This document shows, one piece after another, positions 661 through 64,000 of a stretch of 64,000 nt of DNA. The notes under the pieces were generated by a model, which had not been told where the DNA came from, did not search any database, and saw only the letters and a list, made by a program, of their open reading frames with translations. The translations under genes were made by a program, and so were the position numbers. Every line of letters starts with the position of its first letter. Position 1 is the first letter of the stretch. This DNA comes from Haplodiscus bocki (lineage: Eukaryota), in the NCBI GenBank assembly GCA_965655095.1, contig OZ296653.1, forward strand, positions 19,902,001-19,966,000, written 5' to 3'.

Positions 661-2270
661 TCAAAAATAAATGACAGCAGTGGGGTTAGGACAACATGGT
701 TCTGAAGCGGTAGGTCCCGGGTTCGAGTCGCTATCGTGCCAAATATTTTTACGATTTCGAATCGTGGCACTCTCTCCCTCCACCCCTCCTATCCATAGAT
801 CTTTTCGATACCAGGAATTTCCCGAAACACAGAAGGGTTCCCCTACGAAATTTTTCGGTACTGTGAGACAACAAATTTTCGATGGAAAACTGTGACACTC
901 CCTCCCTCCCTCCATTCTTATCCATAAAATTTTTCGATACCAGAAATTTTCTGAAACAAAGAAATGTTCCCCCACGAAGTTTTTCGGCACTGTGAGACAA
1001 AAAATTTCCGATGGAAAAACGTGATACCCCCCACCTCTCATCCATAGTTTTTTCCGTACCAGAAACTTTCTGAACACAAAAGGGTTCCTTCACGAAGTAT
1101 TTCGGCACTGTGAGACTAAAAATTTTCGACGGAAATTGGTGATACCGCCCTTTCATGCATAAAATTTTTCGATACCCCAAATTTTCTGAAACATTGAAGG
1201 GTTCCCGATAAAATTTTTTGGCAGTGTGAGACGAAAAATTTACGACGGAAAAACGTGATATAACCCTCTTGTGCATAAAATTTTTCGATACCCGAAATTA
1301 GTGAAACACTAAAGGGTTCCCCTACGAAAGTTTCGGTGCTGTGAGACATAAAATAGTCTACAGAAAATCGTGCTACCCCCACCCCTGACTGAAAATCGTG
1401 ATATCCCCCTCATGCAAAAAATTTTTCGATACCCGAAATTTTGTCAAACAGAAGGGTGCCCTACGAAGTTTTTCGGTAAAGTGAGACAAAATATTTTCCG
1501 ACGGGGAATCGTAATACCCCCCCCCCCCTCTCCATCTTATGCATGAAATTTTTCGATACCCGAGATTCTCTGAAACAGTGAAGAGTTCCCCCACGAATCT
1601 TTTCGGCACTGTGAGACAAAAAATTTCCGACGGAAGAACGTGATACCCCCACCTCTCATCCATAATTTTTTCAATACCAGAAATTTTCTGAAACACAAAA
1701 GGGTTCCCCACAAAACTTTTTGGCACTGTGAGACGAAAAATTTCAGACGGAAAAACGTGATACTCCCCCCCCTTCTTATCCATAATTTTTTTTCATATCA
1801 GAAATTTTCTGAAAGACAAAAGAGTTCCCCCACGAAGTTTTTCGGCACTGTGAAACAAAAAATTTTCGACGGAAGAACGTGATACCCCCCACCTCTCATC
1901 CATAATTTTTTTCAATACCAGAAATTTTCTGAAACACAAAAGGGTTCCCCACGAAATTTTTTGGCACTGTGAGACTAAAACTTTTCGACGGAAAATCGCG
2001 ATACCCCCTTATTATGCACAAAGTTTTTCGATACCCCAAATTTTCTGAAACACCGAAGGGTTGCCCACGAAATTTTTCGGTAATGTGAGACAAAAAAATG
2101 GGAACGAAGTCTTTTGCATATAAGAGAGAAATCAGTGGTGGAATTGATGTTTGTAGAAAACCTTCGAAAACTAGATTTTAAACTGTGGTCTCGTTTTTAA
2201 CTGTTTGCATATGTTGATCAAAATTTTTGTATTCGGGCGAAAAATATGCCGGTGCTAGCCGGCCGTCTTG
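661..2270 (+). mobile_element. Non-autonomous Helitron-like element with tRNA-like head and internal satellite
   Basis: Starts with TC at 661. The 3' end has the hairpin GCCGGtgctagCCGGC followed by CTTG|T at 2267-2271; the same terminus occurs at 14402 and 42238. tRNA-like A/B-box segment at ~676-740 (GGTTCGAGTC). Confidence 0.55.
790..2095. repeat. Tandem satellite, ~120-bp unit, ~11 diverged copies
   Basis: Recurring unit cataaaatttttcgatacc-gaaattttctgaaacac-aagggttcccc-acgaa-ttttcggcactgtgagac-aaaattttcgacgga-cgtgataccccc. The ORFs called here are repeat translations. Confidence 0.92.
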
Positions 2271-42238: not shown

Positions 42239-43929
42239 TTTTATTTTCAAATGTGAAGCGCCTAAGTCTCATTGATTTGCCGTGTTTGGCGTATAATAGC
42301 GGTCAGTGATTATTCATTCCAGTTTAAAGAACTGAGAAAAACATACACAAAATTGCCGTAAGGGTCAGTTAGTCGGGTGGCGAATGGTCGGGAGATAAAA
42401 GCGGGACAACGTAAAAGACATTTGTTATCTGTTTTTATGTATATATGAAAACAGAAAATGCGGAGAGCAGCCACCAAGCATTCACAGTAATTTGGCAAAA
42501 GTAGTGGATATCTGAGTGGCAGATTATCAAGGGATAAATGGAGGATATTTCAAAATTTTTTGGTTTAATTTTTCTCAAGAGATTTCCGCTATAAAAAATT
42601 GCTTTTCGATTTTTTTATTTCTAACGAAAGAGGGGTATCACTAAAATTTTCGACGATTTGCTGAAAGAGAAAAAGGGAAAATGCAAAGGGGGCGTCGCGA
42701 AAAATAGTTACGTTCGACACTGTCTTCACAGAAACACTCTCTGGGAGGAACAATGCTGCCAGAAAAATGCAGAGACGAAACTCTCAAGCAAAATTGAGCA
42801 AAATTGTATCGACTCGAATGGAGGTCTATCGTCTCAGTAACTCTAATAGTCGGCATCTTCACTTTTGGAAAAGCACCGACAAAAAAGAACTCAAATATTA
42901 CCGTATAAAACTCTATGATGTGATTAAATCTAGATCATGGAGATCCTGGAGATTTTTCCTGCAAAACGCTTTGGATCCTTCAATTTTATACCTACTAAAT
43001 ATAGAAACTGTTTTTAAACCTGCTTCCCGGCTTCAAATTTTTCCGATAAAATTTCATGCAGAACTAAGATCAAAGGCTTCCAATTGTACAAAAAACGCTG
43101 CTGGTTTGTTTTCATTATCATTCATTTCTTGTCGAATTTTCTCAGTCGCAAAAAAACTAATGCATCTGTAACCTGAAATACTATTCCAATCAAAACGGAA
43201 TTTGTTATTTAACAGTTTTCAAGAAGCTACGTTGTCTCTTCGCTCATCACTTGCTGCAAAACGTCAGAAAAACTTTAATGTGAATTCATCATCTAGAGTT
43301 TTCGGTTACTGATTAGAAGTAACGAAAAAATTTATGTCAGTTTATGTTGAAACTATGGAAGTTCAGTGGATGGAGCTAGAAAAAATTCCACTGCGAAAAA
43401 TCTTTTCGCATTAGCAGTGATTAAAAGTCAAATTATTGCATGCAGAGATAATAAAGCTGTACAGGAGTCCCCCGATACACATCTCAGATTAGTTGCAAGT
43501 TAAAGGGAACAAGATTCTTTCGTCTAAAATAATACAGTATCAAAACTTTTAAAACGGCAGAAATTCGCATGAAGTTTATTGAGCTCGACATTTGGAGAAC
43601 AAACATTGTGGAGGAAATATCGTGAGAAAAAACCTAATATTTCTCAAATTTTTAGCAACAAACTCAAAATTGTAAAATCTACGGAAATCAGAAAAGTTAT
43701 CAAATGTTTTGGTGCTTCGTTTTTTTCTTCAGTTTTTTTTGATTTTTTTTCCAAATTTGTGCTATCAAATTTTGTCACCATTTTGCTATCTGAAAACGGG
43801 GTGTAACGATTTAAAGCTCGTATTCTCCGAAAAACGTTTGGGTTTTCACCTTTCTTTAATATCGGAGCCGGAGATGAGATATTATGAGAACGATGTGTTG
43901 TCGCGTTATAACTAACGCTTAAACAAATG

Positions 43930-45982
43930 TGTTATAATTCTATATTTCCTAAATACGTGCAGTAATCTATTAAACAGGAAATGACTAAGGCTTAACAAGA
44001 GAACTGCGTGTGTTATTGACTAACCTGGGAGCTGAGCTGGTGAAAGGAGGAATAATACGATATAAAAGAGCTGAAGGATTGGAATTGCAAAGGGAAGAAA
44101 AAGGAAAATTTCTAAAAGCGTTGGAATGTGGTTCAACGCGATTGGCTAGTACGGTCACATGACCAGTGACGTACCATAGCTTCATTTTGGAGTTGGTACG
44201 GGAAAGCAGCTCGATCATTACGTACTTACTCGTTTACTGGCCGGCAGCCATACTTCTTTCCCTTTATTTTATTCCCTTTCCTTTTTACCTTGCTTTCTCT
44301 TCCTTCCTGCTTGGTTAAAATTAATCTGAATTCTCTTCCTTCTTTCCTCGGACGAAATCATTCTAAGACAGTTCCAAATTTGTCCTTGCTGCATATTCTG
44401 CTTACAGAACCAACCTATTCGCTCTCGATTTCTCACCAAATGATCCTATTGGCTCTCGCCGAAACTGGAAAAATACGCGGCCATTCGAGTATAAATACCC
44501 AGAGCACAACCATAATATTCATTCGCTTGCTACCACCAACTACCCTACTTCCCCGAGGCGAAACTCTCTTCCACCTCCCTCTCACCAATATTCTGGAAAA
44601 ATTCAAAGAGTTTTCATCAACAACCCGAAAATCTTCAAAGACTTTTTCGCCTGCAAAATTGTCTTTGCCGCAAGCCACCAATAACCCGGAAATATTCAAA
44701 GACTTTCCAACCAGCAAAAGCAACCAGCAGCAGCAACCAGCAGAAGCAACCAGCAGCAGCAACCAGCAGCAGCAGCAATCAGCAGCAGCAATCAACAGCA
44801 GCAACCAACAGCAGCAATCAACAGCAGCAACCAACAGCAGCAATCAGCAGCAGCAATCAACAGCAGCAACCAACAGCAGCAATCAGCATTCGGCCTACCA
44901 GCAGCACCTACACAATCAACGCCGACCTCCGCTAGTTACCATTACGGTTCCTAGTAGAGGATATCCCGCTAGCAGTTGACCTAGGACTAGCTGCCCGGTA
45001 GCAGAATGTAATCACCGCACCGAGGCCCATTTTTGTTACTTTTCCACTTTTCTAAAATTCATTTTTGTGTTTTTTCCCTTTTTTGCTAAGACTTAGTTTT
45101 AAATATTAATTGGTAAAAGTAAAACAAATAAAATTCACGACCAGTTGACAGTCCATATGACTTATGTCCTGGTAGCAGATAAAAAAGAATGAAATTTATT
45201 GCTGGTGTCCCGTGGGTCCGGACTGTTAAACGGCAGGTGGCTAAACACCAGCTTAAGATTACGACCGGACGAGTGGAATATCCATAGGGTGGTCAGTTTT
45301 TATACTAAGAGTAGTGTACAATGCATGTAATTTAAAATGCATGTAAACTGAACTCCCTTTCTCTACAGACTGGCCTATCCAGCTTGAGACTAAAACAGGG
45401 ACTAGTCTTTTTTAACCCGTCAGCCTAGAAACCTAGAGAAAGACGTGGTTTAGCTAAACGTAGAACAAACTATAAAGTGACGGGCTAAAAAACCGACTAT
45501 ATCAGACGGGACTTGTTCGTCAGCCGCACTAGTCAAAAAGTAAAATGCTGTATGTTTACTCTATTTGGTCTATTCACAGATTTCCAGTTTCAACAGCAGC
45601 TATTGTGGGTGTGGATCGGCTTTAATTTTGATGTTTTATAAATTTAATTTATAATTTTAAAATTTATTGGGACTAAATTTGAATAGTCCAAGAGTCTAAT
45701 TGTGATAATTCATTTTATAATGCAATTAGTCTGAATTGAGCGAGTCCACTTTCTATCCATGATTTATAGTTTTTTAATTCAATTCAGTTTAATTATTTCA
45801 ACTTTTATATTTTAATTAATAACTTTAATTCAGACTAAACTAAAGTAGTCTGAATTAGTTGATGCTGGCTACAATTTATAATTTTAATTCCGACTAAAAT
45901 GAAATAGTCTGAATTAGTTGACGTTAATCACAATTTCACTTTCAAAGTGAAATTAACTTGACGTTGATTAATTTTCATAACA
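43930..45982. mobile_element. LTR-like segment (TGTTAT...ATAACA) of uncertain origin
   Basis: 6-bp inverted termini, TATA at 44490, AATAAA at 45127, TGGTAGCAGA (tRNA-iMet PBS-like) at 45170, ~60-bp repeats at ~45650-45960. No matching TSD. Confidence 0.35.
44710..44910 (+). repeat. CAG/CAA-rich compound minisatellite (~39-bp higher-order unit)
   Basis: Repeated cagcagcaaccaacagcagcaatcaa; translates as SSNQQQQSTAATN repeats. Confidence 0.9.
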
Positions 45983-46170
45983 GTTTGTGGCATCCCCTTT
46001 TTAACCCCTCGTTTATTCTTCTGACTTCTTATTGAATAAAATCGGTATCTTCACTAACTTCACGGGTTAAATTTAAAAAGAAGTTGATAAAATTGAAAAG
46101 ATAAATATGTATACAAATTGCTGTGCTAATAATGATTTAAATTAAAGGAGAGAAAGTCGATTATATATAG

Positions 46171-46541
46171 TGTAACTGTATTGCGTAAAATTTAAGACCA
46201 TGTGGCAGTTTTCCCTGTGCTATCCCACGTTTGCAGCCTGCAGTCGGATCTGAATAAATCCCCCTTAAGTACGTGCAGTCATATGTCTTTCCGCAATTCA
46301 ACATATTGGAATACCTTCGCTGACAATTTAACTTTCCTTTGTATTATTCTCCGCTATTGCTTACAAGTCCTTGCTTGAATTCAGGCAATCCCTTTGTTCG
46401 CACGGTTAAGCAAGGCACACTATTGAGACTTATAAAGAATGGCCGTCGCTACAACGCAGCAGTGCTGACTGAGTCAACCGCCAGCACAACTAAGTAAATA
46501 ATAATACATTTGCAATACCTCTACCCCCACAACCTGCGACA
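46171..46541 (+). repeat. Putative 5' LTR (371 bp)
   Basis: TGTAAC...GCGACA, TATA-like tataaag at 46431, followed after 3 nt by a TGG-initiated PBS-like sequence. The left boundary cannot be confirmed without the 3' LTR. Confidence 0.6.
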
Positions 46542-46544
46542 AAC

Positions 46545-46560
46545 TGGTGCGACAGTGAGG
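46545..46560 (+). promoter_or_regulatory. Primer-binding site candidate TGGTGCGACAGTGAGG
   Basis: TGG start 3 nt after the LTR-terminal CA; cognate tRNA not identified. Confidence 0.55.
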
Positions 46561-46567
46561 CGTTTCA

Positions 46568-47048
46568 ATGAGCTATGATTCTGAAGTGTCGCATAATCTT
46601 TTCTCCGCTTTCCCAACCTGGTCAATTTCAGTTTTCAGCCTAATTCTTATATTGGGTGCTTTGATTTCATTCATTACCGGCGCTTCATTTGGTAAAATAG
46701 TTAACTGGGTCTTAGATTTTAACCGGAGCATTTTCAACCCCAACCGACTGAGAATCTATACCCAAGAAGTTTTTCATCGAGTTTAGGTCCTTCAACTGAG
46801 CTCGACGACAGTTTTTGATAAATTTATTCGATTTTTGAGATGAGTCAAGACTTAATAATTTATTTATATGTGCTGCTTTTAATAGTACTGGTGTTATTGC
46901 TAACTCCTCCTCTTTTGGTTGCACTATTCGAGATTGACGACACTCTGAATAACAGAAACTCTGCTGGTCGGAAATGAGAGGAGACCTTGTGCTTTTCCTA
47001 TATCTCCTGCTGATTCTCTTATTATCTCTACTCTTTGGACCCAACTAA
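46568..47048 (+). pseudogene. Three small hydrophobic ORFs (46568-46843 with one internal TAG; 46840-46977; 46974-47048) linked by ATGA overlaps
   Basis: Each has one long hydrophobic stretch; stop/start ATGA at 46840-46843 and 46974-46977. Confidence 0.6.
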
Positions 47049-47119
47049 ATCTTTGCAGTAATTAAACCTGGGCAAAATCTGAACAAGCAAGCTGACTACT
47101 AACTGATCGACGCCTCTGG

Positions 47120-48221
47120 AACTTGGAAAGGATCCTAACCAGCATTGGTATTTCTTTGAATACAACGAATTCAAAACTTATTTTACTATTCTGCCCGTGA
47201 ACGTCAGAAACTCCAACTGAACAATTAAAAGTGATAATTACAAGGATCGATTTCACCGTCAAAAGACAGTTTCGACTCTGATTACAAGTTTATCCTGAAG
47301 GAGAACCCCTATTCAGTAAATTCTCTACATTGAGGATATTCCACGAGCATTTTGACTCAGCAATCGCCGCTATTCAATATTACCACGAGTTTCCAGAGCT
47401 CGAATTTCCTGAATTGGACTTGACAGTTCTCAATTCACTCCTAACTGATCCAGTGGTGAATCACTATACATAGACAACTTCAATCGTTCTTTCATAATAG
47501 GTTCGTGTTAACACCTGATGCCCCAAAAATTTGAAAGTTCGATGACGCATTTGGACGAGCTACCCGAAGAAGCGTGCAAACATACTCCACTAAATTGCAT
47601 CTGGCTTATCACCACCCAAGACACGAGTCCAACGGTAATCATAACCTGTTTAAAATGGACCTTCAATTTGGAATTTTGTGTACGAGTAACAGCCTATCCG
47701 CTGGGAGCACCAAACATTTCTAAACAAATAGATCTAGACAATCATCATACTCTGCTTAAATCCTTAACTGATGCACTCCTTTTATACGACGCTCTCCCCG
47801 AACCTCAATTAAGTTCCCATCAACTTGCACATTTGGAAGAGCTAATGGAATATCTGCATTTCAAATTCTGAAAAATTAAATTCCACAAAAAATTGCGGAC
47901 CTTGCACCAAACTGGGGTGATATCCAAAAAGAATGCCAACATATTCCACGGAATTGTCCGTGGACTATTGCTTGTGAAGACGGAACCCTAACATTCATCA
48001 TTAGGAGTTTAGAATGGACTTTCAACTATGATTTTTGGATAAGAGTGACTGCCCACCCAGAAGAAAACCCAAGTATTTCGAAACAAATAAACATTGATAA
48101 ACAACATCCTTTGCTTGAATCTCTATCATAGGTGCTAAACGATTACATCAGATTTCCCGAACCCCATAAAAATTCCCTCCAACTTCATATTCTTGGAGAA
48201 CTACTAGACATCTTACTTTGA
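47120..48221 (+). pseudogene. Three tandem paralogous ~115-aa accessory ORFs (~47120-47473 broken; 47518-47871 intact; 47880-48221 with ATT start and one stop)
   Basis: Shared core VIITCLKWTFNLEFCVRVTAYPLGAPNISKQI / FIIRSLEWTFNYDFWIRVTAHPEENPSISKQI / VIITRIDFTVKRQFRL*LQVYPEGEP. Confidence 0.75.
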
Positions 48222-48239
48222 GAAGATATAATCTCCAAA

Positions 48240-49662
48240 ATGGCCAATGCTCATCTTGCTCATCCAGACTTGGAACTGGACAAAATTTCTGGCAACGACC
48301 CAGACCAAGATGCAGAAGCGTTCATCCGCTTAATAGAGTGCAAGATTAGTTTTGCTCTCGGAACCGAGCCAGACGAGGCCGACGCAGAACATGTTATCTA
48401 TCTATTCAGAAAGAAGGCTTTATTTTCCTCATTACTAAAAGGACCCGCAGCCGAATGGTATGGCAGCACTATTCAAGACGCGATGACATGGAATGAGGTC
48501 CGAACTCTGTTCTTAACCAGATTTTCAGATTGAAGAAACAAATTTAGACACAGAATGGAAGTTGAACACTGCATACGAGCTGATGGGGAAGATATCCGAA
48601 ACTTACTTCACCGAATAAAGAAGACAGTGGAAAAAGCGCTGGCCTGATGATATGGTTGGAATCGCTCCCGGCGATCAGAATGCTGAGCGCACCGCACAAG
48701 CCCGGCAAAGAAGACAAAGATAAATCGACTACACCCTAAAAGGACTCAGACCTAGATACCTACAACGAAAAGCTCAAGAGTATTTGATGGAACACCCAAA
48801 TGCAACTTGGAATGATTTTTCAACCCACTTAATTAACAGAGATGTATCCTATCAAGTCTCTACTAGCTTCCTGAACGACGAAGAACAGAATAAGGCTCAG
48901 ATGGCCTCCTTGGGACAAGAAATAAAAAACCTACGAGCGGAGCTGAAAGAACACAGAACAAACGCTGTAGAAGGAAACCAGGAGCCTATTGACCCTAACC
49001 AGAAAGGAAGACAGAATGCTACAAGGTTTTGTGGTTATTGTAGAACCAATGGAAACACTTCTAATTATTGCAGAAGGCAGATACGAGATGAAAAAATCAA
49101 GAAGTTGCAGAATGAAGCCACACCTGAGAAAAAAATTACGTTCACCCGAGATTACAACGAAAGACGTAGACCCTCCCACGGATGTGGAAATTGGACTAGA
49201 CGAAACGATGATAATGGGGTTATGATGTCAACCCCTCGACCTTTCGATAGAGGAAAGTTCCAGCCAAACAGTCAGAATTTTAACAACTTCAGACAAAATA
49301 GACCTTTCAAGCGAGGAAACCACACGAATGACAACAGTATTCGGTACAATGAGTACAGAGCAAGATCACCGTACCAGCCAAACCAGGACGAATCTAGAAA
49401 TTGGAGAAATAACAGTGATTCTTCACGATCGCCTTCAACGTCGAGACAAGAATCATCCTTCAGGGATTTTCGCAATCAACCCCGATCAAATTCGCCTCAC
49501 CATTTTGTGTTTAACCGGTTTGGAAATCGAGGCCCGAGCAACAATATGTCCTACGACAAGAAATTCCCAACTTCCAACAACGGTAACCAACCAAACGTAG
49601 TTCGATTCACTACAACAGACGACGAAATCAGTACGTTATCGGGACTGTGCCCTTTAAACTAA
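48240..49662 (+). pseudogene. gag: gag (disrupted)
   Basis: Capsid-like LKGPAAEWY...TWNEVRTLFLTRF; knuckle CGYCRTNGNTSNYC (H replaced by N); N/R/S-rich tail; stops at 48533 and 48723 and a frameshift near 48640. Confidence 0.88.
49653..49659 (+). promoter_or_regulatory. -1 ribosomal frameshift slippery heptamer T TTA AAC at the gag/pol junction
   Basis: In-register X XXY YYZ immediately before the gag TAA; pol is in the -1 frame. Confidence 0.8.
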
Positions 49663-50520
49663 TGAGGTCTCCGAGCTCAGCTACTGACCAGTCCAAGAAT
49701 TCAAGACTCAGCTTCAACTTTTTCTACTTTGCCACCGGAGACACTCAAAAAGATAGTGGCTTAGAAATTGAATTCATGCTAGATACTGGAGCTTCTAGCT
49801 CAATCATAAACTATCGAAACTTTTGGGAAATCTGCCAAACCCAGGACACTATTACGGTGAAAATAAGCACTACACAAACAAAGACTTGTTCTGGCCAAGT
49901 TATGCCTATGATTAGTTTTGCAACATTAACATTCAGTTACGACCCGTATGGACAATTTTCTTTTCCTTCAACCGTCTGAATTACCAAAAAAAGACTCAGA
50001 ACCTTCTCGGCAAGGACTTCTGTCAAAAACAAGTATCTCGCATTCACTTTGATTTATCCGGAATTGAACTTAAAGAGCCACCAAATACTGTTTGTAATGG
50101 AAACCTTCAAAGGAACAAATCGTACCCTTTCATTTCGCAAATACTCACCATTGGAACCCCACATGCAATGCACATTGAAGCCATGAGCGCAAGATGCTGG
50201 AAGTATTCGCCTGAAGATCCTCAGGCTCACTTTCTTCCTGGATCAACTTTTTATCCAAATCGCAATGCTGTCGCTACAGGATTAACTTTTGTCAATTTAT
50301 TATGCACTCGATCAGAATCAAAGCTGCCTATACTCATGGAAAACAAGAGGAACCACCAAATCAGGGCCGAATTGGTTTTTCATCATTAGACGTTTCTGAC
50401 ACTGATAAACCAAAGTACCAAGTACGAGACCCTTACGAGCTGACAAACGCAATTCTCTAGACAAACGAACAGTGCAACGATTGTTTTCTACTACACTCAA
50501 CAATTCCTCCTCAGTCACAC

Positions 50521-50905
50521 GATGATTTCCTGCAAATTGTCTATGGGAATGAAAATTCTGTCCTTGACCAACCCAACTCAATCGGCCATTGCATCTCTGC
50601 AGACGCTCAGATGAGTAAAGTGTTTGCACAATAGACGAGCCAACTTTCTGAAGGACCAAGTATTTCCCGTTTGGGACTCTTCTTCAAGACGATATATCTA
50701 TAATCTGGTAACGAAGGAGAAATATTTAGATAAACCAGATTTGTCAACTTTGGCTACAACATTGCAAAATATGCAAGCCCACGCCACTATGCACGGAGTT
50801 TTAACGATTGCTATACCAAAGATTGGATGTGGTCTTGATCAGATGAACTGGTGAGATGTATTAAATATGTTTGCTTATTCAGATATACAAATTGTGGTCT
50901 ATTCA
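50521..50905 (+). other. TARG1/OARD1-type macrodomain embedded in pol (disrupted)
   Basis: SIGHCISADAQMSK, RYIYNLVTKEK, KP, IAIPKIGCGLDQMNW and DIQIVVY match the TARG1 motifs SLAHCISED..MG, YIYYLITK, SMPRIGCGLDRLQW and IKITVY. Confidence 0.88.
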
Positions 50906-53900
50906 CCGGACGAACACGCAAATCACGCTATGTCCGACGAAGGAGATCCGGAATTCTATGCTGAAGATAAAATAGACCGATATAGCGAAGAATTTTATTT
51001 GAACGAAAGGGAACTGGAAACCGATTTCACCAGTGACGCTCATTCTTGTCAACCAGATTGCGACGAACAATTTCCCATTTTACGCCCGGAAGAACAAAAC
51101 GAAGCTCTTATTGAGCACTATCTTCAGTGTCAGCCTGAAGAACTACCTGATTAGGTTAAACAATTCGATTTTCAGTACTCAGACAAAACAGATAATGAAA
51201 TGACTCTACTCATTGTTATGCTGATCGACTCGAAGGATGTGTACTCCCTCCACAAATTCGATGTTGGGAAGACCCGACAAAAATTTCACGTTACGTTGAA
51301 ACCAAATGTGGAGTTGAAACGTCAACGAGCGAGCAAAGTGCCACCACATCTGAAAGACAAGCTCGAAAAACTACTAACACGCCGATATCATTCGAGAAAT
51401 GGGCAACGATGACGAAATGGGATCTCTCTTTGTTACCCCAATAATCTTGACGCTAACGAACGACTATGTCAAACTAGTGATTGCTGCCCGCTATCTGAAC
51501 TCAGTGACTGACCTCACAAACTACTCCTGGCCGTTGGAACCAATTCAGATGATTATGAGAAGAGTGAACGGAAAATACTTCTCAGTCAGTGAATTGTCCT
51601 GTGCCTTACATCAGGTACCCCTTAGCTTCGAAACACAGAAATTGACAAGTTTCATCATCGGAGGACGACAAAATGTTTTCACCCGAGGATTCTATGGTCT
51701 GTGTGGCCTACCGAATTTCTTTAGTCGTTTGATGACGATTCACTTCGACCCAATGATTGGGAAGAAACAGGCAATTACTAACATTGATGACACTATCATG
51801 CAATCGCAAACCAGAGGCGAGATGTTTACCATCATCAATGAAATTCACATCCTTCTGCGGAAGGCTGGGTTAAAAGCTGCCCCAGACAAAACGTTTTTCT
51901 TTCTGAAGAAAGTGAAGTTCTTGGGACACGTCATCTCACCTGATGGAATTCATTCCATAGCAAAACGCGTAGATGCCTTATTGAACCTCAAGTCACCCCA
52001 GCTCAAGCGGGATTTTATGAAGGTCTTGGGATGTCTTGGTTTCTACAGCTGCTATATTACGAACTTACACGTTGATAATCAGCCCACCTCTGACTTAACT
52101 AAAGATTCTACCCCATTCCTTTGGACTGAGGAACATGAAAAGCTCTTTAACTCCATTAAAGAAAGAATTCAGAAAGATACAGTTCTAGCAGTTCCCTCTA
52201 CTGATTACCCGTTTCATATTCATGTGGACTCCTAAAATGTTGGTACAGGTTGTATTCTTATCCAACATTTCCCCGAGGGAAAGAGAATTATCTTGTTCAA
52301 CTCTCGCCTATTTGACAAAGCAGAGCAAAAAATGTCCAATCTTCACCGAGAACTATGCGGAATCGTATCAGCTGTTCAGACATATGAACACTACATCATT
52401 AGGTCACCATTCTTTTTTTATCTTTATTGTACCCATAAACCAATTCTTTCTTTATGGGGACGCAAACGACAACTATCACATCGTTTTTTCCGATATCATG
52501 TAATCATCACGAAATTCCAGAACTTGAGGATCATTTGGACACCAGGATCGAACTTAGCATTTCCAGATATTCTCAGCCGAAACATCACGATCGAAGAATA
52601 TCATATGCACCAGTTGCAACATAAACGTATTCCGCGTGATATTGAGTTATTGGATGAGAAGGGAACTCCAGTCTCATATCAAATTCAGCATGAGGACAAC
52701 CCTAACAATACTTGCAACGACTTTTACCCAATCAGGTACAAGCGAGGCGACGAAGAAAAAATATAACAATTACAAAATGACGGCGAAGACTTTACAGTCA
52801 GTAGCCTAATTGACAAACTCCCATTTAATTCAATTCAACAAGCTTCTGACTGTTTCCGAATGGGACTGTTTATCAACCAGTTTAGAAGAATGTGTGGACC
52901 AGAGGCTCAATCAAATCTATCCGTTAACACATCTGATACTGACTATAGTTCAATCGACTCCTTTAGTTCGTCTGCAGATGACACAACAGATCCAACCAGT
53001 CACGGCGATGCCTCATGCGACATCAATACGGACTCCGAAGATGACAATATCGTTTGTGATATCAGTATTCAAGCTAATAAACCCCTACTCTGTCAAAGCA
53101 AACAAACTCACGAACTTGTGCTCGAGAAATCCGATGCTTCTCTACCCAAGAAACTCCTAACAATCTCTGACGCTCCTCATCTAGACATCAAAGCCTTGAT
53201 TCGGAAACTTGACGAAGTTGCGAAGACAGTAGATCTCGATGTATCAACCATTCTTGCAGAACAAATGAAGGACCCATGTTCTGGTACTGTACGTTCTTGG
53301 ATTCATGAAAACACTACCCCCGATAAGAAAGTACCAGAAATACAACAATCTAAAGCTCTCCTGCGATATTGCCAAAATTTTGACAGACTTCTTATTGAAG
53401 ACGAAGGACAGCTCCTTTGTTACAATGAGCCATCTGACAAACTAGAAAAAGAAAACTTCTGTATTTGCCTCCCTTTATCTCTATTCTTTGCATGTTTCCG
53501 TTTGGGACACTACAACGAAATGGGTTGACACATGGGAGCAATAAAAACCTATGCCAATGCCAGAAGTTCTTATTACTGTTCCCGAATGTTTGATTGGATA
53601 TGCGCTTTGACAGCCGATTGCCTTACCTGCCAAAACAACAAACCTAAACCGAAGCATCGAAACGAAGTTCCACTCGAAGAATGGCAAAACGAAACAATCT
53701 CCTTCCGCACTCTACACCTTGATCATAAGGGACCTCTTCACCCAACTAGTGCTGGCAACGTACATTGTCTCTTAAGTATTGATGCATTCTCTCGATTTTT
53801 GATGGTCCCTCCAGTACGTAATACTACAGCCCTAGCAAAAATAATAGCCGTTGAAAAGTGGATCCTTCCTTTTGGAATCCCGCAATCGATCATCCATGAC

Positions 53901-55487
53901 CGAGGTACTGCTTTCATCATTACAGAGTTCATCAATTAGACCAAAAAACTTGGAATTACCCTAAGACCTCGTCCAGCTTATTCACCCTGGACAAACGGTA
54001 AAATTGAAACCCAGAACCAATATATTGCTCGAAATTGGAGAAACTTTCTTAATGATGCCGGAAATAACTGGTCCACACTAGCACCGAAGTTTGCTTCGGC
54101 CACAACACGAGTGTCAACTACACGACTGGAAAAACCCATACGAAATTGACATTGGGACTAAACCACAAAATCCTACGTTACTCAAGCTGGGACTTTATTG
54201 GAATAAACACAAACTTTGCTGTTCTAAAATCTGTGAAAACCTCCCTTCTCATTCTCATGGTGAGAACAGCTTGAAGAACGAATTGTTGGACAAGCTACTT
54301 CAACCGCAATTATCACAAGCTATTTTGGAAAGAGAACGAACCTTCAAACGAATCTATTCATCAACCTTTGAACCATGCCGAGAACAGACAGCACAATCAC
54401 ACGCCTATCGCAATCGCTTCAAGTTGGGACACCACCTCGAAGTAGGACAGAAAGTGCTTCACGAAAATCTTAAGCAAGATTCCACACGGAGCCACAAACT
54501 TCAACAGCGAAGACTTGGACCCTTCACCGTTACCAAGCGTATCACGAATACCACCTATCAAATTGAAGATGATAAAGAGCCTACAGTTATCAAAGCTGTT
54601 CAAAGAAACCACCTTGTTGAATACTATCCTAAAGAAGGATTTTTACCCGCAATGATAGAAAAGTATGTACCTTCTGATCACCAGAATGACATTTTCTGCG
54701 AGCGTTTTATGGAACAACGCAACGCACCCGAGATCTGAAAAATCCAAGTACCACAGAAAACTATGATTTTCCCATTCCCGATAGAACCGTTACGATCCAT
54801 TCCGCCCATAGGCCAGCCAAAACGATCCAGTATGCAGAGTAACGATTCTGGAATTACTTCTCCATTTGCTTCTTCTCGCACCCCTGTACTATCATCTGCA
54901 ATTCCCACGGAAACAACAACCCCCCATCCATCCTCTTCTCAGCAAGCAAAACCTGCTCAATTGTCGCACAGGGCACACCTCAGTCCGATTCAAAAAATTA
55001 TTCGTAAAAGTGCCAACCGAATGGCCAAAAATAGCGTTAATTCGCGCCCTAAAGAGCCCAAATATAACCGCTTGCAGCCAAATTACCCGGATTCTCAGTC
55101 AGTTTTGAGGATAATTACTCGACAGAGCTATAAACTTTGATCCCCTTTACACTATTGCCACATTTTTATAACTTTTGTGTTACATCAACCCTTATTTTCT
55201 ACTCGCGAATATTGCCTTCTTCGATTCTCAACTACAATTAACAAGATGGCTATGATCCCTCAGCATCGAACAACTCAACGTTCAGACGCCTCGAAGTTTT
55301 TGCCATCAATTCGTTTTCTTCATATTTTCTACATTCTTTTACAAAAACAATCGAAAAAGCCAAAAAAAACTTTATTTGTTGTGTAAATACAAAGAAGAAA
55401 GCCGCACAGTAAAATAAAGGACGAGACAGATAAAAAACCGCCGAGGGTTAAAAGGCCCCCGACGACCGACAGAGCCGAGCGACTTAC

Positions 55488-55745
55488 TCTTTTTCGAGGA
55501 AGCCGCCCGACTCCGCCAACATCCGCAGGTTTGCTGCTCTTTCAGAGGCCGACCACTCCTCAAAAGAGCGCCTCAACAACTTTTTGTTTATACTCGTCAA
55601 TCGGGCATACCCAACTATATGGGGACTCTGGGGACTCTGGAGATTGCTCCAGATTTACTTCCACATTAAAATGCAGAGGAACCGCCACTTCTTGCTCATC
55701 CTCAGAAGAACTCTCCTCAAAATAAAAATCACTATCGCTCTCCAT
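55488..55745 (-). pseudogene. Antisense acidic ORF/exon inside the element
   Basis: tttttgcag acceptor 1 nt before the ATG. Reads MESDSDFYFEESSSEDEQE..., then after a 1-nt shift EEWSASERAANLRMLAESGGFLEK, then a GTAAGT donor at 55487. Confidence 0.45.
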
Positions 55746-56216
55746 CCTGCAAAAATTTTACATTAATCCTTTGGAAGCTACGACCCCCCTGCTCTAAACG
55801 TGACGCCTCTATCCTTTTCAAAAAAACGCTGCTTTCGCTTGCCGATAGCTCAATGGTAAGAAATCAAAGCGCTCCCGACAAGAGATAGCACTACACTAGT
55901 CCTGAACCAAAAACAGTGCTAAAGGATTTTCCCATGGTTGTTGTTTTGAAATTTGTCTTAATTTTACCAACGCCTATTTTACCCTTCTAAACCACGGAAG
56001 GCCTCAAAGTGACGAGCACAGCAGAACGATGAAAACGGAGAGGATGCCACCAAAACTCTTTTACACAATTTATTCATTTTATTTATTTTTTTTTAATTGA
56101 TCTTACGAAAAACTTAATTCCTTAAATTCCTAAATTAAATAGTACATAGTTACAATAATGAATACATCGTCGCATTGAAATAACTGAATATTACATTCTC
56201 AGATTTGCTATGACCG

Positions 56217-56660
56217 ATGTATGTCAAAATTGACGGAGAATTCAAGTCAATAAAAAGAATCGAGCTGAAATCCGACACAGCAACGATCCTCATTCACACC
56301 ATAGAAGACGAGGGCCGGGAAGAGGAATACATGTGTTTTTCTGACTCCCCTAACTATTACCATATGCGCTGTTTGTTGTCTCCAGACATCTACATAATCA
56401 GTGACAATATTTCTGGCAATAAGGAGCATATTATTTAAACGACACTCTTACTCCTCCGGATTGACAATCAACTGCAGTGTATTGTGGGCTTAACTTTTAT
56501 CACTGGAACAAAAGATTTCATGGTAACAACTCAATTTACTAACAACGACCAGATAACAACCTTCATTTGCTCACCCGAATCAACTCGTTATCCTTTTATT
56601 GAAGCTATACTCATGAACCCTCCCCCGAATCACATTAAAAGTCAGAACGGGAAATTTTAA
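56217..56660 (+). pseudogene. Two in-frame 73-codon modules separated by one TAA, unknown function
   Basis: Acceptor ttctcag at 56202; halves share xxxID....I and xxC...S..Y patterns. Confidence 0.45.
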
Positions 56661-57211
56661 ACGATTGTTCACAACAGACATTTTTATTCCAGATAACCTG
56701 GAGTGTGGAAACTCAGAACCCACAATTTGAATGCATCAATTAGAAATATCAATCTCGCAGTCACACACAAACACACCACTCAACAGAGTTAATCTCAATT
56801 GTAAATGGACTTCATTTGATTTGTGAGAGTGTAAAATCACTAATATTTTCTGGTTACCCAAAGGGAGCCCCTTACAAGCGCGAAAAGACCCGGTTGACAA
56901 TCTACCCACTGTAGTTGTTATCCCAATACCTGCCCGCACAGCAGAATTCGCCAAGCTCTTTGTGACCCTCGGAATTTGGCCACTCCGTCTTTGGACACGA
57001 CGGAAAATCAAAGATTGGTAGATCTCCTCGCGTAAATGAAAGTTAACCTGGAAACCTACACTTGGGTGTCACTGATCAACCTGTTGCACGAAACTTGCTA
57101 TCTTTACGACCTGAACTAAAAAATAGACGAGGAAGGTAGATGAGTTCTTCAAAATCCCTACGAAGTTTTGACAAAGTAACCAATCTGCTTCACCACTAAA
57201 CAAAAGCCCAA

Positions 57212-57345
57212 TAGTTGGACATAAGTGCCAATTGGGAACCACAAATTATCGAAACCCGAATAATTGGACATAAGTGTCAATTGGGAACTACAAATCATCA
57301 AGACTCAGATAGTTGGACGTGCGAGCCAATTGGGAACTACAATCA
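57212..57345. repeat. Three tandem ~48-bp repeats upstream of env
   Basis: ttggacataagtgccaattgggaaccacaaat, three diverged copies. Confidence 0.8.
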
Positions 57346-57591: not shown

Positions 57592-59792
57592 ATGAAAAAT
57601 TCCACTCTACCCTCCCCATTTGCTAAAACATAGGATGTTATAAACCAGGTCTTCTTTCTAATTATTTTAGCCAGTTTCAGGAATGGCAAGCTTGAAAACG
57701 CAGATTTGCAAAAAGTAGCCTCCCAACTCAAAGTGACACATTACGACGGTGGAGAGATGACAGAGAATAACCTCTACGCCTTAACCCAAGTTTCCAAATG
57801 CAACATTGCTCCTGAAAACCTAGAAGTCAGCAGAGCAAAACTCACAATGTACACAAAACATCTTCGACAAGAAATCAACGCAACATTTTGTAGAGTCAAA
57901 TATCAAAGTGAACAATGGCACTGTGGCTGTGCAGACGATTCAAACTTGGTCGCCCATCAAACAGGAGGAATAACAGTAGATTTAACCGTTACAGCATCTC
58001 AGTGCAGAACGTTAGCAAAAGGTGGTTCGATGACTTTAAAAGATGAGACACTCGAGTTCAAAAAAGGAGTAAAAACAACGGTAGTTAAACACAAGGATTT
58101 TGATGAATATGGAGTGGACCTCAGCGTTAAGTACAAAAATGAAGGCGACTCACATGCATGGGTAAATCGCAAAACATTTGAAGGTCATGTACAAGACGTC
58201 GTGCTTAAAGTACTCACTAAAGATGGCAAAATTATGAGCAAAGACGCACTGCAATTACAAAGACCTTTAGAAGAACTCGAATGTGACACTACTTCATTCG
58301 ACCCTTATGCATACACATGGGACGCCCCTGACAATTGAGTATTAGCTATTCATCGGAAGGAAGACGTTAACATGATCAAACAAGGAAAAACAACTACTAT
58401 ATTGTCGGTGGACGAAACAACACTAATCAGTATCTATTCGAGGTAAAAACGAAACCCGAAGTTTTCTGCAACAAACTAGTGCAAGTATACCCGACCAACT
58501 ATGACTCGTCATTCGTGGTTATCGACTTTGTTGGATTCGATCTAGTTTCTGGGAAAAAGATGGGTTTCTCAGGAGGAACACAACATCTACAATACTACCA
58601 GCCTTCAGTCTCATCTGACGGCAGACTATTCGTACACAAACCTGAGTCCCCCATACAGATAACCCTAACTCAGAAACACCTCACTACCTCAACCTGGATT
58701 GTGAACTCCATCAAGGAACGAAACTGGAATATCTTTTTTTCGAAAGCTCAAAGATGCTTGAAGGCTCCGATATACAACTTCTAAAGAACTTATGCGAACA
58801 AGAAAGAACCCAAATTTTAACTATTTGGATGCTTTTAATGCAGAACCCACGTCTAGCTGGTTATATGTTAACTGTGTTTACTGGGGATTGCTCTATGTTC
58901 CTCAGTACCGATGGAAGCCTCGCTTGGTTTGTATCACTGCCCTTTGATGCGTTCTCCACCACACGTGATGAATCAATGTTATGAGAGAATTCCTATCTTC
59001 TACAAAAGTGCTATCTTTTTTGTCGACCCAATGACCCGACAAACCTGCCCAGATGCCCAGGTTCAAAATTGCTCTGACCGGATTAAGAATCTCTTCCAAA
59101 TTGATATGGAATGTGGTTCACTAATACACCTACTCTAGAGCACAGGAAACGACCAGCAGTATTTACACCAGAAGAAGTAACTCCTGTATCCAGAAGAGCT
59201 TTTGGTGGAGCAGGAGATGCTGGAATTTACACACGAGCACAGCTATCTGAATTTTCGGACAATATCTTTATCAGCGCTGCTTCAAGGAAAGCTTTGCAAA
59301 AATTGTCAACTCATTGTCACCAACACGGCAATTCATGGACCAGAACAATATTCTTATTTTGCTCCACGAACAAACATCTATGTGGACAACATGATTTCCC
59401 CCAGTTACTTCAAAAATCAATTGATGGACACGTTTGGATCAGTTGCCTATGTCTTAGAATTTTGTGCAATATACTTCTTTTGCTTCTTTTTAATCAAGCT
59501 CATCGTTGATCTCGTAGTCATGATTTTACGACACATGGAAATTAACCGTCTCACTGGCGCATCGCTTGGATTTGGAAAGACACTCCTGAGCGCTTCTTAC
59601 ATTTTGTTTTTGACGTCTATTTCAAGGTCAGTATTCAATCCCCAAGCTCCTATTTTGCAGGCATTGGAACCCGAACCAAGGCCCACAAGAGTAGAAGACG
59701 AGAATAGAGATCCAGTAGACGAAAATACGAAAAAGGAGGAGCACCTTCATCCGATGGTTCATTGCTCCACTACGGTTCTTTCGCCTGTTTGA
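57592..59792 (+). pseudogene. env: env-like glycoprotein related to chuvirus (Jingchuvirales)-type G, disrupted
   Basis: Acceptor at 57586; N-terminal hydrophobic stretch. Collinear motifs THYD, FCRVK...WHCG, SQC, LCEQER, YHC, CYERIPI, GIYT, and the C-terminal TM region FFCFFLIKLIVD. Several stops and frameshifts. Confidence 0.78.
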
Positions 59793-59869
59793 TTAGGATA
59801 ATATGAGCGTTATCCTGACAGCCTTTTTATTAATTTATTAATTTCATTTTTTTATAAATTCTTTTTTAG

Positions 59870-60634
59870 AATTCAGACGACCAACTACTTCCTTTGCTGG
59901 AAGACGACGAACTGAACGCGCTGGTCAACGGAATTGACTGGGACCAACCCTTATCTCCACTTGATTTAAAATTGCCAACGGACCCAGATATTATTACCCT
60001 TCTTTCTTCTTCTTCTCCTCTCGCTCCAGTTGGTTTGCCGAATCAGCCAAATAAACCGTTGGTCAACAAATTCCTCCAATCCCTAACAAATACCCCGATC
60101 CACTTTACAGATCACCCTACGACCTCTCACCAAGAGTCTCGAGTCAGTATTCTATTGCCTTCATTGCGTAGTTTCAAAGCCTATTCTAATAAAACCCAAT
60201 CGGAGGAAACACATTCTAATTCCTCTTTGCCAAAACGACTCCGCTCTAATTCAACAGCTCTGGGAACATCGACTCAAGACGCTAGTGCAAATCTTTCACG
60301 ACCGAAACGATTTCACCAATACCAGCAAATTCTCAAACAGAAGCGAACAGAATGTTATTATCGGCAACATAAATCTGTCAGAAGGCCTCGATACAACACC
60401 CGTCTACATTACCAACTAACTAACGCTTTTTCTTCTGGGGAAATCATGTTTTGGGATTGTAAAAGACAGGAATATACCATCCAGGACACTGCTTTATCAC
60501 CACAGAGACTCGTGGTACCCCTGACAACTATCGAAGTACAGCCTGTCGAAAGACACCGAATCCACTCGCACCCATATTCAAGCCAACAAACTGCTCACGA
60601 TTATTCACAATATACCGCCGAGTTGCTGACGTAA
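59870..60634 (+). CDS. ORF-X, S/P/T-rich then basic protein downstream of env (copies at 61113-61700, 62414-62983 and ~63650-end)
   Basis: Open for about 250 codons after a T-rich AG acceptor at 59869; acidic N-terminus and K/R clusters (PKRLR, RPKRF, VRRPR). Confidence 0.5.
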   Translation, partial: NSDDQLLPLLEDDELNALVNGIDWDQPLSPLDLKLPTDPDIITLLSSSSPLAPVGLPNQPNKPLVNKFLQSLTNTPIHFTDHPTTSHQESRVSILLPSLRSFKAYSNKTQSEETHSNSSLPKRLRSNSTALGTSTQDASANLSRPKRFHQYQQILKQKRTECYYRQHKSVRRPRYNTRLHYQLTNAFSSGEIMFWDCKRQEYTIQDTALSPQRLVVPLTTIEVQPVERHRIHSHPYSSQQTAHDYSQYTAELLT

Positions 60635-63070
60635 ATTGATGCATCTACTTCACAAGATATTATCGATCTTACTATTTGGATCAGTTGGACACGTTTGGAT
60701 CAGTTGCCTAGGTCTTAGAATTTTGTGGAATATACTTCTCTTGCTTCTTGTTTATCAAGCTCATCGCTGATCTCGTAGTCATCATTTTACGACACATGGA
60801 AATTAACCGTCTCACTGGCGCATCACTTGGATTTGGAAAGACACTCCTGAGCGCTTCTTACATTTTGTTTTTGACGTCTATTTCAAGGTCAGTATTCAAT
60901 CCCCAAGCTCCTCTTTTGCAGGCATTGGAACCCGAACCAAGGCCCACAAAAGTAGAAGACGAGAATAGAGATCCAGTAGACGAAAAAAAGAAAAAGGAGG
61001 AGCACCTTGATCCGATGGTTCATTGCTCAACTACGGTTCTTTCGCCTGTTTGATTAGGATAATATGAGCGTTATCCTGACAGCCTTTTTATTAATTTTTT
61101 AATTTCATTTTTTTGAAATTCTTTTTTAGAATTCAGACGACCAACTACTTCCTTTGCTGGAAGACGATGAATTCGACGCTGGTCAACGGAATTCACTGGG
61201 ACCAACCCTTATCTCCACTTGATTTAAATTTGCCAACGGACCCAGATATTATTACCCTTCTTTCTTCTTCTTCTCCTCTCGCTCCAGTTGGTTTGCCGAA
61301 TCAGCCAAATAAACCGTTGGTCAACAAATTCCTCCAATCCCTAACAAATACCCCGATCCACTTTACAGATCACCCTACGACCTCTCACCAAGAGTCTCGA
61401 GTCAGTATTCTATTGCCTTCATTGCGTAGTTTCAAAGCCTATTCTAATAAAACCCAATCGGAGGAATCACATTCTAATTCCTCTTTGCCAAAACGACTCC
61501 GCTCTAATTCAACAGCTCTGGGAACATCGACTCAAGACGCTAGGGTAAATCTTTCACGACCAAAACGATTTCAGCGATACCAGCAAATTCTCAAACAGAA
61601 GCGAACAGAAAGTTATTACCGGCAACATAAATCTGTCAGAAGGCCTCGATACAACACCCGTCTACATTACCAACTAACTAACGCTTTTTCTTCTGGGTAA
61701 ATCATGTTTTGGGATTATAAAAGACAGGAATATACCATCCAGGACACTGCTTTATCACCACAGAGACTCGTGGTACCCCTGACAACTATCGAAATACAGC
61801 CTGTCGAAAGACACTGAATCCACACGCACCCATATTCAAGCCAACAAACTGCTCACGATTATTCACAATATAGCGCCGAGTTGCTGACGTAAATTGATGC
61901 ATCTACTTCACAAGATATTATCGATCTTACTATTTGGATCAGTTGGACACGTTTGGATCAGTTGCCTATGTCTTAGAATTTTGTGGAATATACTTCTCTT
62001 GCTTCTTGTTTATCAAGCTCATCGCTGATCTCGTAGTCATCATTTTACGACACATGGAAATTAACCGTCTCACTGGCGCATCACTTGGATTTGGAAAGAC
62101 ACTCGTGAGCGCTTCTTACAATTTGTTTTTGACGTCTTTTTCAAGGTCAGTATTCAATCGCCAAGCTCCTCTTTTGCAGGCATTGTAATCCGAACCAAGG
62201 CCCAGAAGAGTAGAAGACGAGAATAGATATCCAGTAGACGAAAATAAGAAAAAGGAGGAGCACCTTCATCCGATGGTTCATTGCTCCACTACGGTTCCTT
62301 CCCTTGTTTGATTAGGATAATATGAGCGTTATTCTGACAGCCTTTCTATTAGTTTAAATAATTTCATTTTTTTATATATTCTTTTTTAGAATTCAGACGA
62401 CCAGCCACTTCCTTTGCTGGAAGACGACGAACTCGACGCGCTGGTCAACGGAATTGACTGGGACCAACCCTTATCTCCACTTGATTTAAATTTGCCAACG
62501 GACCCAGATATTATTACCCTTCTTTTTTCTTCCTCTCCTATCGCTCCAGTTGGTTTGCCGAATCAGCCACCTAAGCCCTTAGTTAACAAATTCCTCCAAT
62601 CCCTAACGAATACCCCGATCCTTTTTACAGATCAGCCTACGACATCCCGGGAAGAGTCTCGAGTCAATATTCTATTGCCTTCATTGCGTAGTTCCAAAGC
62701 TTATTCTAATAAAACCCAATCGGAGGAATCACAATCTAATTCCTCTTTGCCAAGACGACTCCGCTCTAATTCAACAGCTCTGGGAACATCGACTCAAGAC
62801 GCTAGGGCAAATCTTTCACGACCAAAACGATTTCAGCGAAACCAGCAAATTCTCAAACAGAAGCCAAGAGAAAGTTATTATCGGCAACATAAAGCTGTCA
62901 GAAGGCCTCTATACAACACCCTTTTACTTTACCAACTAACTAACGCTTTTTTCGTCTGGGGAAGTCATGTTTTGGGATTATAAAAGACAGCAATATGCCA
63001 TCCAGAACACTGTTTTATCACCACAGAGACTCGTGGTACCCCTGACAACTATCGAAGTACAGCCTGTCGA

Positions 63071-63370
63071 ATGACACTGAATCCACACGCACCCAGATTC
63101 AACCTGACAAACTGCTCACGATTATTCACAATATACCGCCGAGTTGCTGACATGAATGGATGCATCTACTTCACAAGATATTATCGATCTTACTATTTGG
63201 ATCATTTGGACACGTTTGGATCAGTTACCTATGTCTTAGAATTTTGTGGAATATACTTCTCTTGCTTTTTGTTTATCAAGCTCATCGTTGATCTCGTAGT
63301 CATGATTTTACGACACATGGAAACTAACCGTCTCACTGGCGCATCACTTAGATTTGGGAACACACCCTGA
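63071..63370 (+). CDS. ORF-Y with PAM2-like N-terminus, fused across the repeat junction to the env TM segment
   Basis: MTLNPHAPRFNL (copy 2 reads TLNPHAPIFKP); the ATG overlaps the TGA that closes the ORF-X C-terminal frame (ATGA). Confidence 0.45.
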   Translation: MTLNPHAPRFNLTNCSRLFTIYRRVADMNGCIYFTRYYRSYYLDHLDTFGSVTYVLEFCGIYFSCFLFIKLIVDLVVMILRHMETNRLTGASLRFGNTP

Positions 63371-64000
63371 GCGCTTCTTACAATTTGTTTTCGACGTCTA
63401 TTTCAAGGTCAGTATTCAATCCACAAGCTCCTCTTTTGCAGGTATTGGAACCCGAACCAAGGCCCACAACAGTAGAAGACGAGAATAGAGATCCAGTAGA
63501 CGAAAATACGAAAAAGGAGGAGCACCTTCATCCGATGGTTCATTTCTCCACTACGGTTCTTTCGCCTGTTTGATTAGGATAATATGAGCGTTATCCTGAC
63601 AGCCTTTTTATTAATTTATTAATTTCATTTTTTTATAAATTCTTTTTTAGAATTCAGACGACCAACTACTTCCTTTGCTGGAAGACGACGAACTGAACGC
63701 GCTGGTCAACGGAATTGACTGGGACCAACCCTTATCTCCACTTGATTTAAATTTGCCAACGGACCCAGAAATTATTACCCTTCTTTCTTCTTCTTCTCCT
63801 CTCGCTCCAGTTGGTTTACCGAATCAGCCACCTAAACCGTTGGTCAACAAATTCCTCCAATCCCTAACAAATACCCCGATCCACTTTACAGATCACCCTA
63901 CGACCTCTCACCAAGAGTCTCGAGTCAATATTCTATTGCCTTCATTGCGTAGTTTCAAAGCCTATTCTAATAAAACCCAATCGGATGAATCACATTCTAA

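Follow-up and report, generated by a model that had tools for sequence, protein, structure and literature searches.

Chary and Hayashi (eLife 2026, PMC13524379) reported 114 arthropod gypsy elements with an Anakin/Chuviridae-like glycoprotein, found with Anakin baits, as well as gB-type env in cnidarians, ctenophores, tunicates, bryozoans, nematodes, tardigrades and flatworms, and argued that the env-gypsy association is ancient. Their prefilters required small pol-env gaps and set a region limit of 10 kb, extended manually by 3 kb for some phyla, and may overlook elements such as those described here, in which the pol-env gap is 2.4-2.6 kb. The main text of that paper does not mention a macrodomain or TRAF, and its text and supplements contain no xenacoelomorph names. 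Anakin BEL/Pao elements of mosquitoes were described by Dezordi 2020 (PMC7642597), and PMC10084718 describes gypsy fragments beside such glycoproteins with no clear capture. In one species, the planarian gypsy element Burro carries MATH_TRAF_C as a separate accessory ORF (PMC6431247). A partial search of the literature for macrodomains and TRAF in gypsy elements yielded the Burro and fish-ERV precedents only; none of the papers listed dealt with a TARG1-like domain in the Pol of a gypsy element, or with the whole gene combination described below.

The window analyzed here is a stretch of 64,000 nucleotides from Haplodiscus bocki (contig OZ296653.1). An earlier note, made from the letters of the window alone, had presented an env gene in it as a separate association of a chuvirus-type glycoprotein with a gypsy backbone. 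The association is not new, since gB/Chuviridae-like env on gypsy has already been reported from many phyla (PMC13524379). The window env is another member of this published association, within an element family that is itself a new variant.

The Ty3/gypsy backbone and its copies

The element lies on the plus strand and begins with a 5' LTR of about 2.6 kb with TG...CA inverted termini (43899..46541). A PBS-like sequence starting TGG follows 3 nt after the LTR (46545..46560), a spacing found in 10 of 10 copies, and a search with one exact pattern gave no match to a cognate tRNA. The gag gene (48222..49662; Retrotrans_gag, one CCHC-type knuckle) and the pol gene (49635..55140; PR - macrodomain - RT - RNase H - integrase) are both broken. 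Their overlap holds a TTTAAAC heptamer, likely a -1 frameshift site (49653..49659), which was present in the window, in all 10 family-A copies, in both B copies and in the outside locus L091, and in 0 of 3 D copies. The 5' LTR shares 92.2% identity with a 3' LTR located about 3 kb past the window end. Pfam matches in pol were to Asp protease, RVT_1, RT_RNaseH, Integrase_H2C2, rve, Integrase_p58_C and SH3_Tf2-1, with no Pao family among them. The best PDB match of the RT-RH region was the Ty3 RT (E 4e-34), ahead of foamy virus (4e-24) and MLV (1e-13), from few PDB comparators. The Ty3/gypsy (Metaviridae) backbone named in the earlier note was therefore borne out by the PR-RT-RH-IN order with an H2C2 integrase and a gypsy-type C-terminal domain, and by an RT nearer to Ty3 than to retroviruses; LTRs with TG..CA ends, a short TSD and a PBS are also as expected of this group.

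A first look at the 1.5-Gb genome gave 4369 candidates for the first env piece. The 150 candidates that were scored showed 81-86% identity, apart from the window itself, and many had open frames of about 750 codons. We fetched 24 env-anchored stretches (12 of family A, 6 of B and 6 of D), selected among the env hits for their long open frames, which biases the counts towards intact elements. The expected linkage of env to pol in other copies held, with pol adjoining env in 23 of the 24 stretches and an RT-bearing pol upstream of env in 21. The full gene order was found in 11/12 family-A stretches, in elements of 20.9-22.2 kb with LTRs of 2.7-3.5 kb and TG..CA termini. Gene order, multi-copy spread and integration marks (4-bp TSD, PBS) are direct observations. 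An exact 4-bp TSD was present in 9 of 10 copies; the window copy has a TSD of its own that does not match. LTR pairs were 95-100% identical across copies, and three B copies had LTRs that were 100% identical, indicating recent integration. Gag, pol and env were uninterrupted in other multi-copy elements, whereas those of the window copy are broken. Trees of RT and env, made of unnamed rows only, largely agreed on the family groups, at low support. Between families, the env C-terminus was 67-70% identical and RT-RH 84-94%; the envs of the four families were 53-59% identical to that of family A.

Several further features of the LTRs and copies were observed. Within the 5' LTR, positions 44600-44900 and 45814-45931 contain CAG-rich 13-nt repeats, repeats of about 60 nt and a palindromic 59-nt pair, and LTR length differs among copies with such internal repeats. 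Directly after the window element, about 8-20 kb past the window end, there is a decayed family copy in opposite orientation (L031-L032). Other copies (L051-L052 and L056-L058) have kept env open with most or all of pol deleted, and are likely non-autonomous derivatives. Elsewhere in the window are a divergent SKP1-like ORF with a Skp1 dimerisation domain (E 6.5e-10; 15326-15913, minus strand) and a pair of long ORFs resembling the exons of a host gene (7951-8430 and 9342-9740, plus strand). Overlapping ORFs at 661-1792 (minus strand) are repetitive, with LTVPK-like units that recur, and probably represent a family of tandem repeats. COX1 of the assembly follows the invertebrate mitochondrial code (TGA = Trp, AGR = Ser, ATA = Met, AAA = Lys). 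Provided that the COX1 contig belongs to the host, established code tables exclude cnidarians, sponges, ctenophores, tunicates, vertebrates, echinoderms and rhabditophoran flatworms.

The env protein and its relatives

The window env (57592..59792, plus strand) is a broken homologue of gB/chuvirus-type class III fusogens with a signal-like N-terminus and one C-terminal TM segment. All of the motifs that the earlier note had named were located on the plus strand in three frames: the start at 57592, CEQER at 58793, CYERIPI at 58977, GIYT at 59222 and LIKLIVD at 59490 (originally spelled TM-LIKLIVD). Three of the six env frame pieces matched PF24664 (Monjiviricetes_fusion) collinearly, with E-values of 3e-5, 2e-5 and 5e-3, all three below the curated cut-off. 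Five frame-shifting indels fall at about 58.4-59.3 kb, in addition to at least two in-frame stops, and the window copy is a dead element. The gene has the sense orientation ascribed to it and follows pol at a distance of 2.4 kb; it does not directly adjoin pol, as four accessory ORFs lie in between. Three tandem 49-nt copies at 57191-57337, between the 136-aa ORF and env, are a possible regulatory or splice element. Downstream, the 3' end of env is included in a plus-strand tandem array of five 1.26-kb units (59425..64000, continuing past the window end), each with the env 3' end, a 230-aa ORF and the start of a TRAF gene. The units are 93-97% identical to the first, and the array was present in the window copy only, among the copies seen. 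An assembly artefact is unlikely because the units differ by 3-7%.

The protein was characterized from an unbroken natural copy (L002/P0001; 735 aa, 85.8% nucleotide identity to the window). It scored 114.9 bits against PF24664 (cut-off 27), a family match far beyond chance. The P0001 env begins with a signal-like helix, contains 17 cysteines, five N-glycosylation sequons and a single TM segment, and lacks an R-x-[RK]-R site. A Colicin_V match on the TM segment was below the cut-off and was rejected. The AlphaFold (AF2) monomer, built from a 46-row alignment, had a pLDDT of 73.5 and a pTM of only 0.43. Its best BFVD structural rows were the glycoproteins of Tacheng tick virus 4 and of chu-related, xinmo- and qin-related viruses (E 1.8e-33 to 1e-28, 13-18% identity, TM-scores 0.3-0.46); rhabdo-like glycoproteins, like the xinmo- and qin- ones, scored alongside the chuviral ones. 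All PDB Foldseek rows listed were herpes gB (E 4e-13), and alignment to herpes gB with VIA gave Z 11.8 and an rmsd of 15.5 over 430 aligned residues. Searches of the PDB by sequence, single or profile, gave no match, and homologue searches retrieved no named viral sequence. A search of sequencing runs listed no RNA data set containing the sequence; small shares in coral-labelled runs were not counted as evidence. The structure check proposed for the earlier reading thus returned the expected chuvirus G and herpes gB-like matches, with no baculovirus F or class II protein among the listed structure rows. Together, the Pfam score and these rows argue for homology to the Monjiviricetes fusion proteins (Jingchuvirales/Chuviridae glycoproteins), and the model predicts a gB-like class III ectodomain between the signal peptide and the TM segment (pTM 0.43, monomer).

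The earlier note had also called the association separate and held that it bears on the direction of transfer between viruses and retroelements. A scenario in which a gypsy element of this host lineage recently and separately captured a chuvirus glycoprotein would agree with the chuvirus-like nature of the closest structural neighbours among viral proteins, and with Monjiviricetes fusion as the Pfam family. However, the viral relatives are only 13-18% identical. Env relatives were present at nine outside loci, and in the two longest of these, L091 (38% identity) and L097 (27%), env is likewise preceded by gypsy pol. Env and RT distances also rank alike (env 47/31%, RT 73/45%), the viral_contigs database yielded no env relative, and PMC13524379 records gypsy elements with this type of env from many phyla. 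Such a capture is quite unlikely, and env and pol were likely paired long ago instead of being joined by a fresh capture. The same identities show neither a separate association nor a direction of transfer, and env does not settle the latter; it adds one more host to the published ancient association. The outside-locus ORFs scanned contained no RNA-virus polymerase family. Large ORFs of no known family surround env in L091 (9651-12092) and L097 (6650-9745 and 13413-15263), which suggests that accessory genes are common in the gB-env clade.

Macrodomain, TRAF and small ORFs

The accessory genes, which are the less-known part of the element, had been passed over in the earlier note. A TARG1/OARD1-like macrodomain, broken in the window, lies inside pol between protease and RT (50554..50905, plus strand). 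Macro/A1pp domains have been noted in some other retrotransposons. In an unbroken copy the domain was closest to human TARG1 (E 4e-23); unlike the human protein, it is embedded in Pol. It was found in 21/24 stretches, these being all of the RT-bearing copies, from families A, B, D1 and D2, and a pattern search found both catalytic-site motifs kept in 18 of the 21 pol-bearing copies. The Lys and GCGLD-Asp positions match in an alignment to human TARG1, in which K84 and D125 are the catalytic residues. A second, unrelated gypsy lineage (L114:1349-9835, also L110 and L112), with an RT about 30% identical to that of family A, carries a TARG1-like macrodomain as well, in this case placed between RNase H and integrase. 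Its third ORF of 797 codons gave no PF24664 match and, by eye, is F-type-env-like with an RQRR site followed by a hydrophobic stretch.

The first ~43 codons of a TRAF accessory ORF (60553..60676, plus strand) are repeated in each tandem unit, and the rest of the ORF, with the TRAF-C domain, lies just past the window end. The unbroken ORF encodes 436 aa with the coiled coil and TRAF-C (MATH) domain of a TRAF adaptor (MATH 69 bits; PDB TRAF E 2e-13), and contains none of the RING or zinc fingers of signalling-competent TRAFs. The gene was present in 22 of the 23 stretches that cover its site (families A, B, D1 and D2). One D copy is without TRAF, and neither macro nor TRAF was matched in L091 and L097, so that neither gene is needed throughout the lineage. 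In 11/11 family-A copies, the ORF starts with a motif that we take to be PAM2-like. Compared with the C-terminal domains of human TRAF1/2/3/5, the element TRAF has YPYG, as in the host genes at L100 and L101, in place of the usual YLNG/FLNG; the RING and zinc fingers of human TRAFs are absent and family A adds the PAM2-like N-terminus. The element TRAF aligned with the non-element gene at L100 over 333 aa (29% identity, E 2e-43), including an unusual N-terminal motif. In the TRAF tree, which has four host rows only, a midpoint root and a long-branch warning, the element TRAFs grouped with L100/L101, and two other host TRAF-like ORFs fell outside this group (100/100). Judging from this similarity, the element TRAF was likely taken from a host gene. 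The two YPYG-containing host genes (L100:4496-5689 and L101:4192-5367, both minus strand) are the nearest non-element TRAF relatives among eight TRAF loci inspected, five of them outside element copies; the 10-kb stretches holding them contain no element genes. An upstream zinc-finger-like exon was read by eye at L101, and was not matched by PF02176.

The small ORFs are present in the window as remnants. Upstream of gag, on the plus strand, there are a hydrophobic 72-aa ORF (46568..46783) and three paralogous ORFs of about 115 aa (47113-47470, 47518-47856 and 47880-48218). Between pol and env there are an antisense acidic 183-aa ORF (55487..55754, minus strand), two 73-aa ORFs (56217-56435 and 56442-56657) and a 136-aa ORF (56731-57122), the latter three on the plus strand. 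After env there is the Pro/Ser-rich ORF of ~230 aa with a basic C-terminal part (59837..60550, plus strand). By alignment, the 113-, 117-, 120- and 136-aa ORFs belong to a single family. For the 117-aa ORF, the model had a pLDDT of 82, and the fold search (best VIA Z 4.6, scattered PH-like rows, Foldseek E >= 0.02) gave no assignment. No Pfam family was matched in the small ORFs, and an Atlas search gave no usable match for the antisense and 136-aa ORFs. In a D-family copy (L074-L076), the antisense acidic ORF lies within the LTR and not between pol and env.

Over 54 non-independent pairs, dN/dS was 0.03 for RT, 0.06 for env, 0.07 for gag and for the macrodomain, 0.14-0.15 for TRAF, 0.14 for the antisense ORF (with dS near saturation), 0.28 for the 230-aa ORF and 0.43 for the 136/162-aa ORF. 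When frames were compared, five of seven small ORFs had ratios of 0.12-0.24 in frame versus 0.8-2.3 off-frame. The 72-aa ORF (0.37, borderline) and the 136-aa ORF (0.57) are not clearly under selection, as non-coding controls had best-frame ratios of 0.44-0.70. Env, macrodomain, TRAF and most small ORFs are therefore under purifying selection, which shows use during replication and says nothing of infectivity or immune antagonism.

Proposed role and comparison with known elements

Unbroken copies encode Gag, Pol with a TARG1-like macrodomain, an Env with a predicted class III fold, a RING-less TRAF and about nine further small ORFs. The window env is the broken env of a dead copy of an abundant Ty3/gypsy element of ~21 kb, which likely has a complex retrovirus-like way of life, moving from cell to cell and dampening host defence. 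From what is known of the protein families, Gag-Pol would be made by a -1 frameshift, and an Env trimer on particles would fuse membranes, so that particles could be carried between cells. By the same analogy, a packaged macrodomain may remove ADP-ribose marks laid by host PARPs, and the truncated TRAF (coiled coil and TRAF-C) may interfere with innate-immune or death signalling, either as a decoy or as a dominant-negative adaptor.

The element could instead be a purely intracellular retrotransposon, with Env and the accessory ORFs serving particle trafficking, RNA handling or genome repair; for example, the macrodomain would clear ADP-ribose at integration or repair sites. Infection is not required for a very high copy number, the PAM2-like N-terminus of TRAF in family A suggests a link with poly(A)-binding protein and control of translation, and TARG1 has been linked to DNA-damage sites (PMC4695847). 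However, the low env dN/dS spans the whole ectodomain, and the signal-like and TM segments are kept, which fits what would be a working fusogen. TRAF-C is only 34-52% identical between families and diverges much faster than RT (84-94%), which was counted against an intracellular role because host-facing genes often diverge in this way. We judge such a role to be unlikely, though with some chance of being right. Pick-up of ORFs around env is known in LTR elements (PMC6431247), and together with the weak selection on two small ORFs it could suggest that the element makes no use of the extra ORFs and carries them passively as host sequence that was transduced. Against this, in-frame dN/dS is far below off-frame, the ORFs are retained at fixed positions in four diverged families, and the macrodomain catalytic-site motifs are kept. 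Such passive carriage is hardly credible on these grounds and is already largely refuted for macro and TRAF.

The accessory set matters more than env. Counter-defence genes reveal the host pathways that restrict a parasite. Two unrelated env-gypsy lineages of this genome have kept a macrodomain in Pol, and four families have kept the truncated, likely captured TRAF, making PARP/ADP-ribosylation and TRAF signalling testable as invertebrate anti-retroelement defences. The accessory set also shows complex-retrovirus organisation arising in Ty3/gypsy with a class III fusogen. More tentatively, and with somewhat less than even confidence, the elements may be complex retroviruses of invertebrates that form a clade not described before. 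These would be Ty3/gypsy elements of recent integration that combine a class III fusogen with about ten accessory genes, a load likened to that of lentiviruses, among them a particle-packaged TARG1-type ADP-ribose eraser and a dominant-negative, host-derived TRAF. On that reading, the macrodomain at a different place in Pol of the second, F-type-env gypsy lineage would point to PARP- and TRAF-based retroelement defence in this animal.

Each of the known systems shares part of this organisation. Fish epsilon-like ERVs (PMC4977317 citing Basta 2009) also have a macrodomain on an enveloped retroelement; those elements are Retroviridae, whereas the domain here is TARG1-type, in the Pol of a Ty3/gypsy element with a class III env. 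In Anakin (PMC7642597), a Chuviridae-like glycoprotein likewise lies inside LTR boundaries and was amplified by retrotransposition, but the backbone is BEL/Pao rather than Ty3/gypsy-like, and no close sequence tie between the present env and a named chuvirus was found. Planarian Burro/GYPSM1 (PMC6431247) is also a very large env-bearing gypsy element with MATH_TRAF_C. It differs in having a polyprotein of ~5000 aa with env between gag and pol, instead of separate ORFs with env after pol, and its env is homologous to the gypsy/baculovirus/paramyxovirus type and not to gB. Burro also carries BIR, BCL2, ankyrin and dUTPase, while in the present element TRAF follows env and a macrodomain lies between PR and RT. 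There is also a likeness to the HSV/gB-type 'ancient errantiviruses' (PMC13524379), which share the gag-pol-env order, signal peptide, TM segment, gB-like fold, multi-copy state, LTRs and PBS. Compared with those, the element here is distinguished by its length of about 21 kb, its LTRs of 2.7-3.5 kb and its ~10 accessory ORFs. What is new is the clade as a whole, composed of gB-enveloped gypsy elements that are rich in genes, were active recently and carry signalling domains captured from the host.
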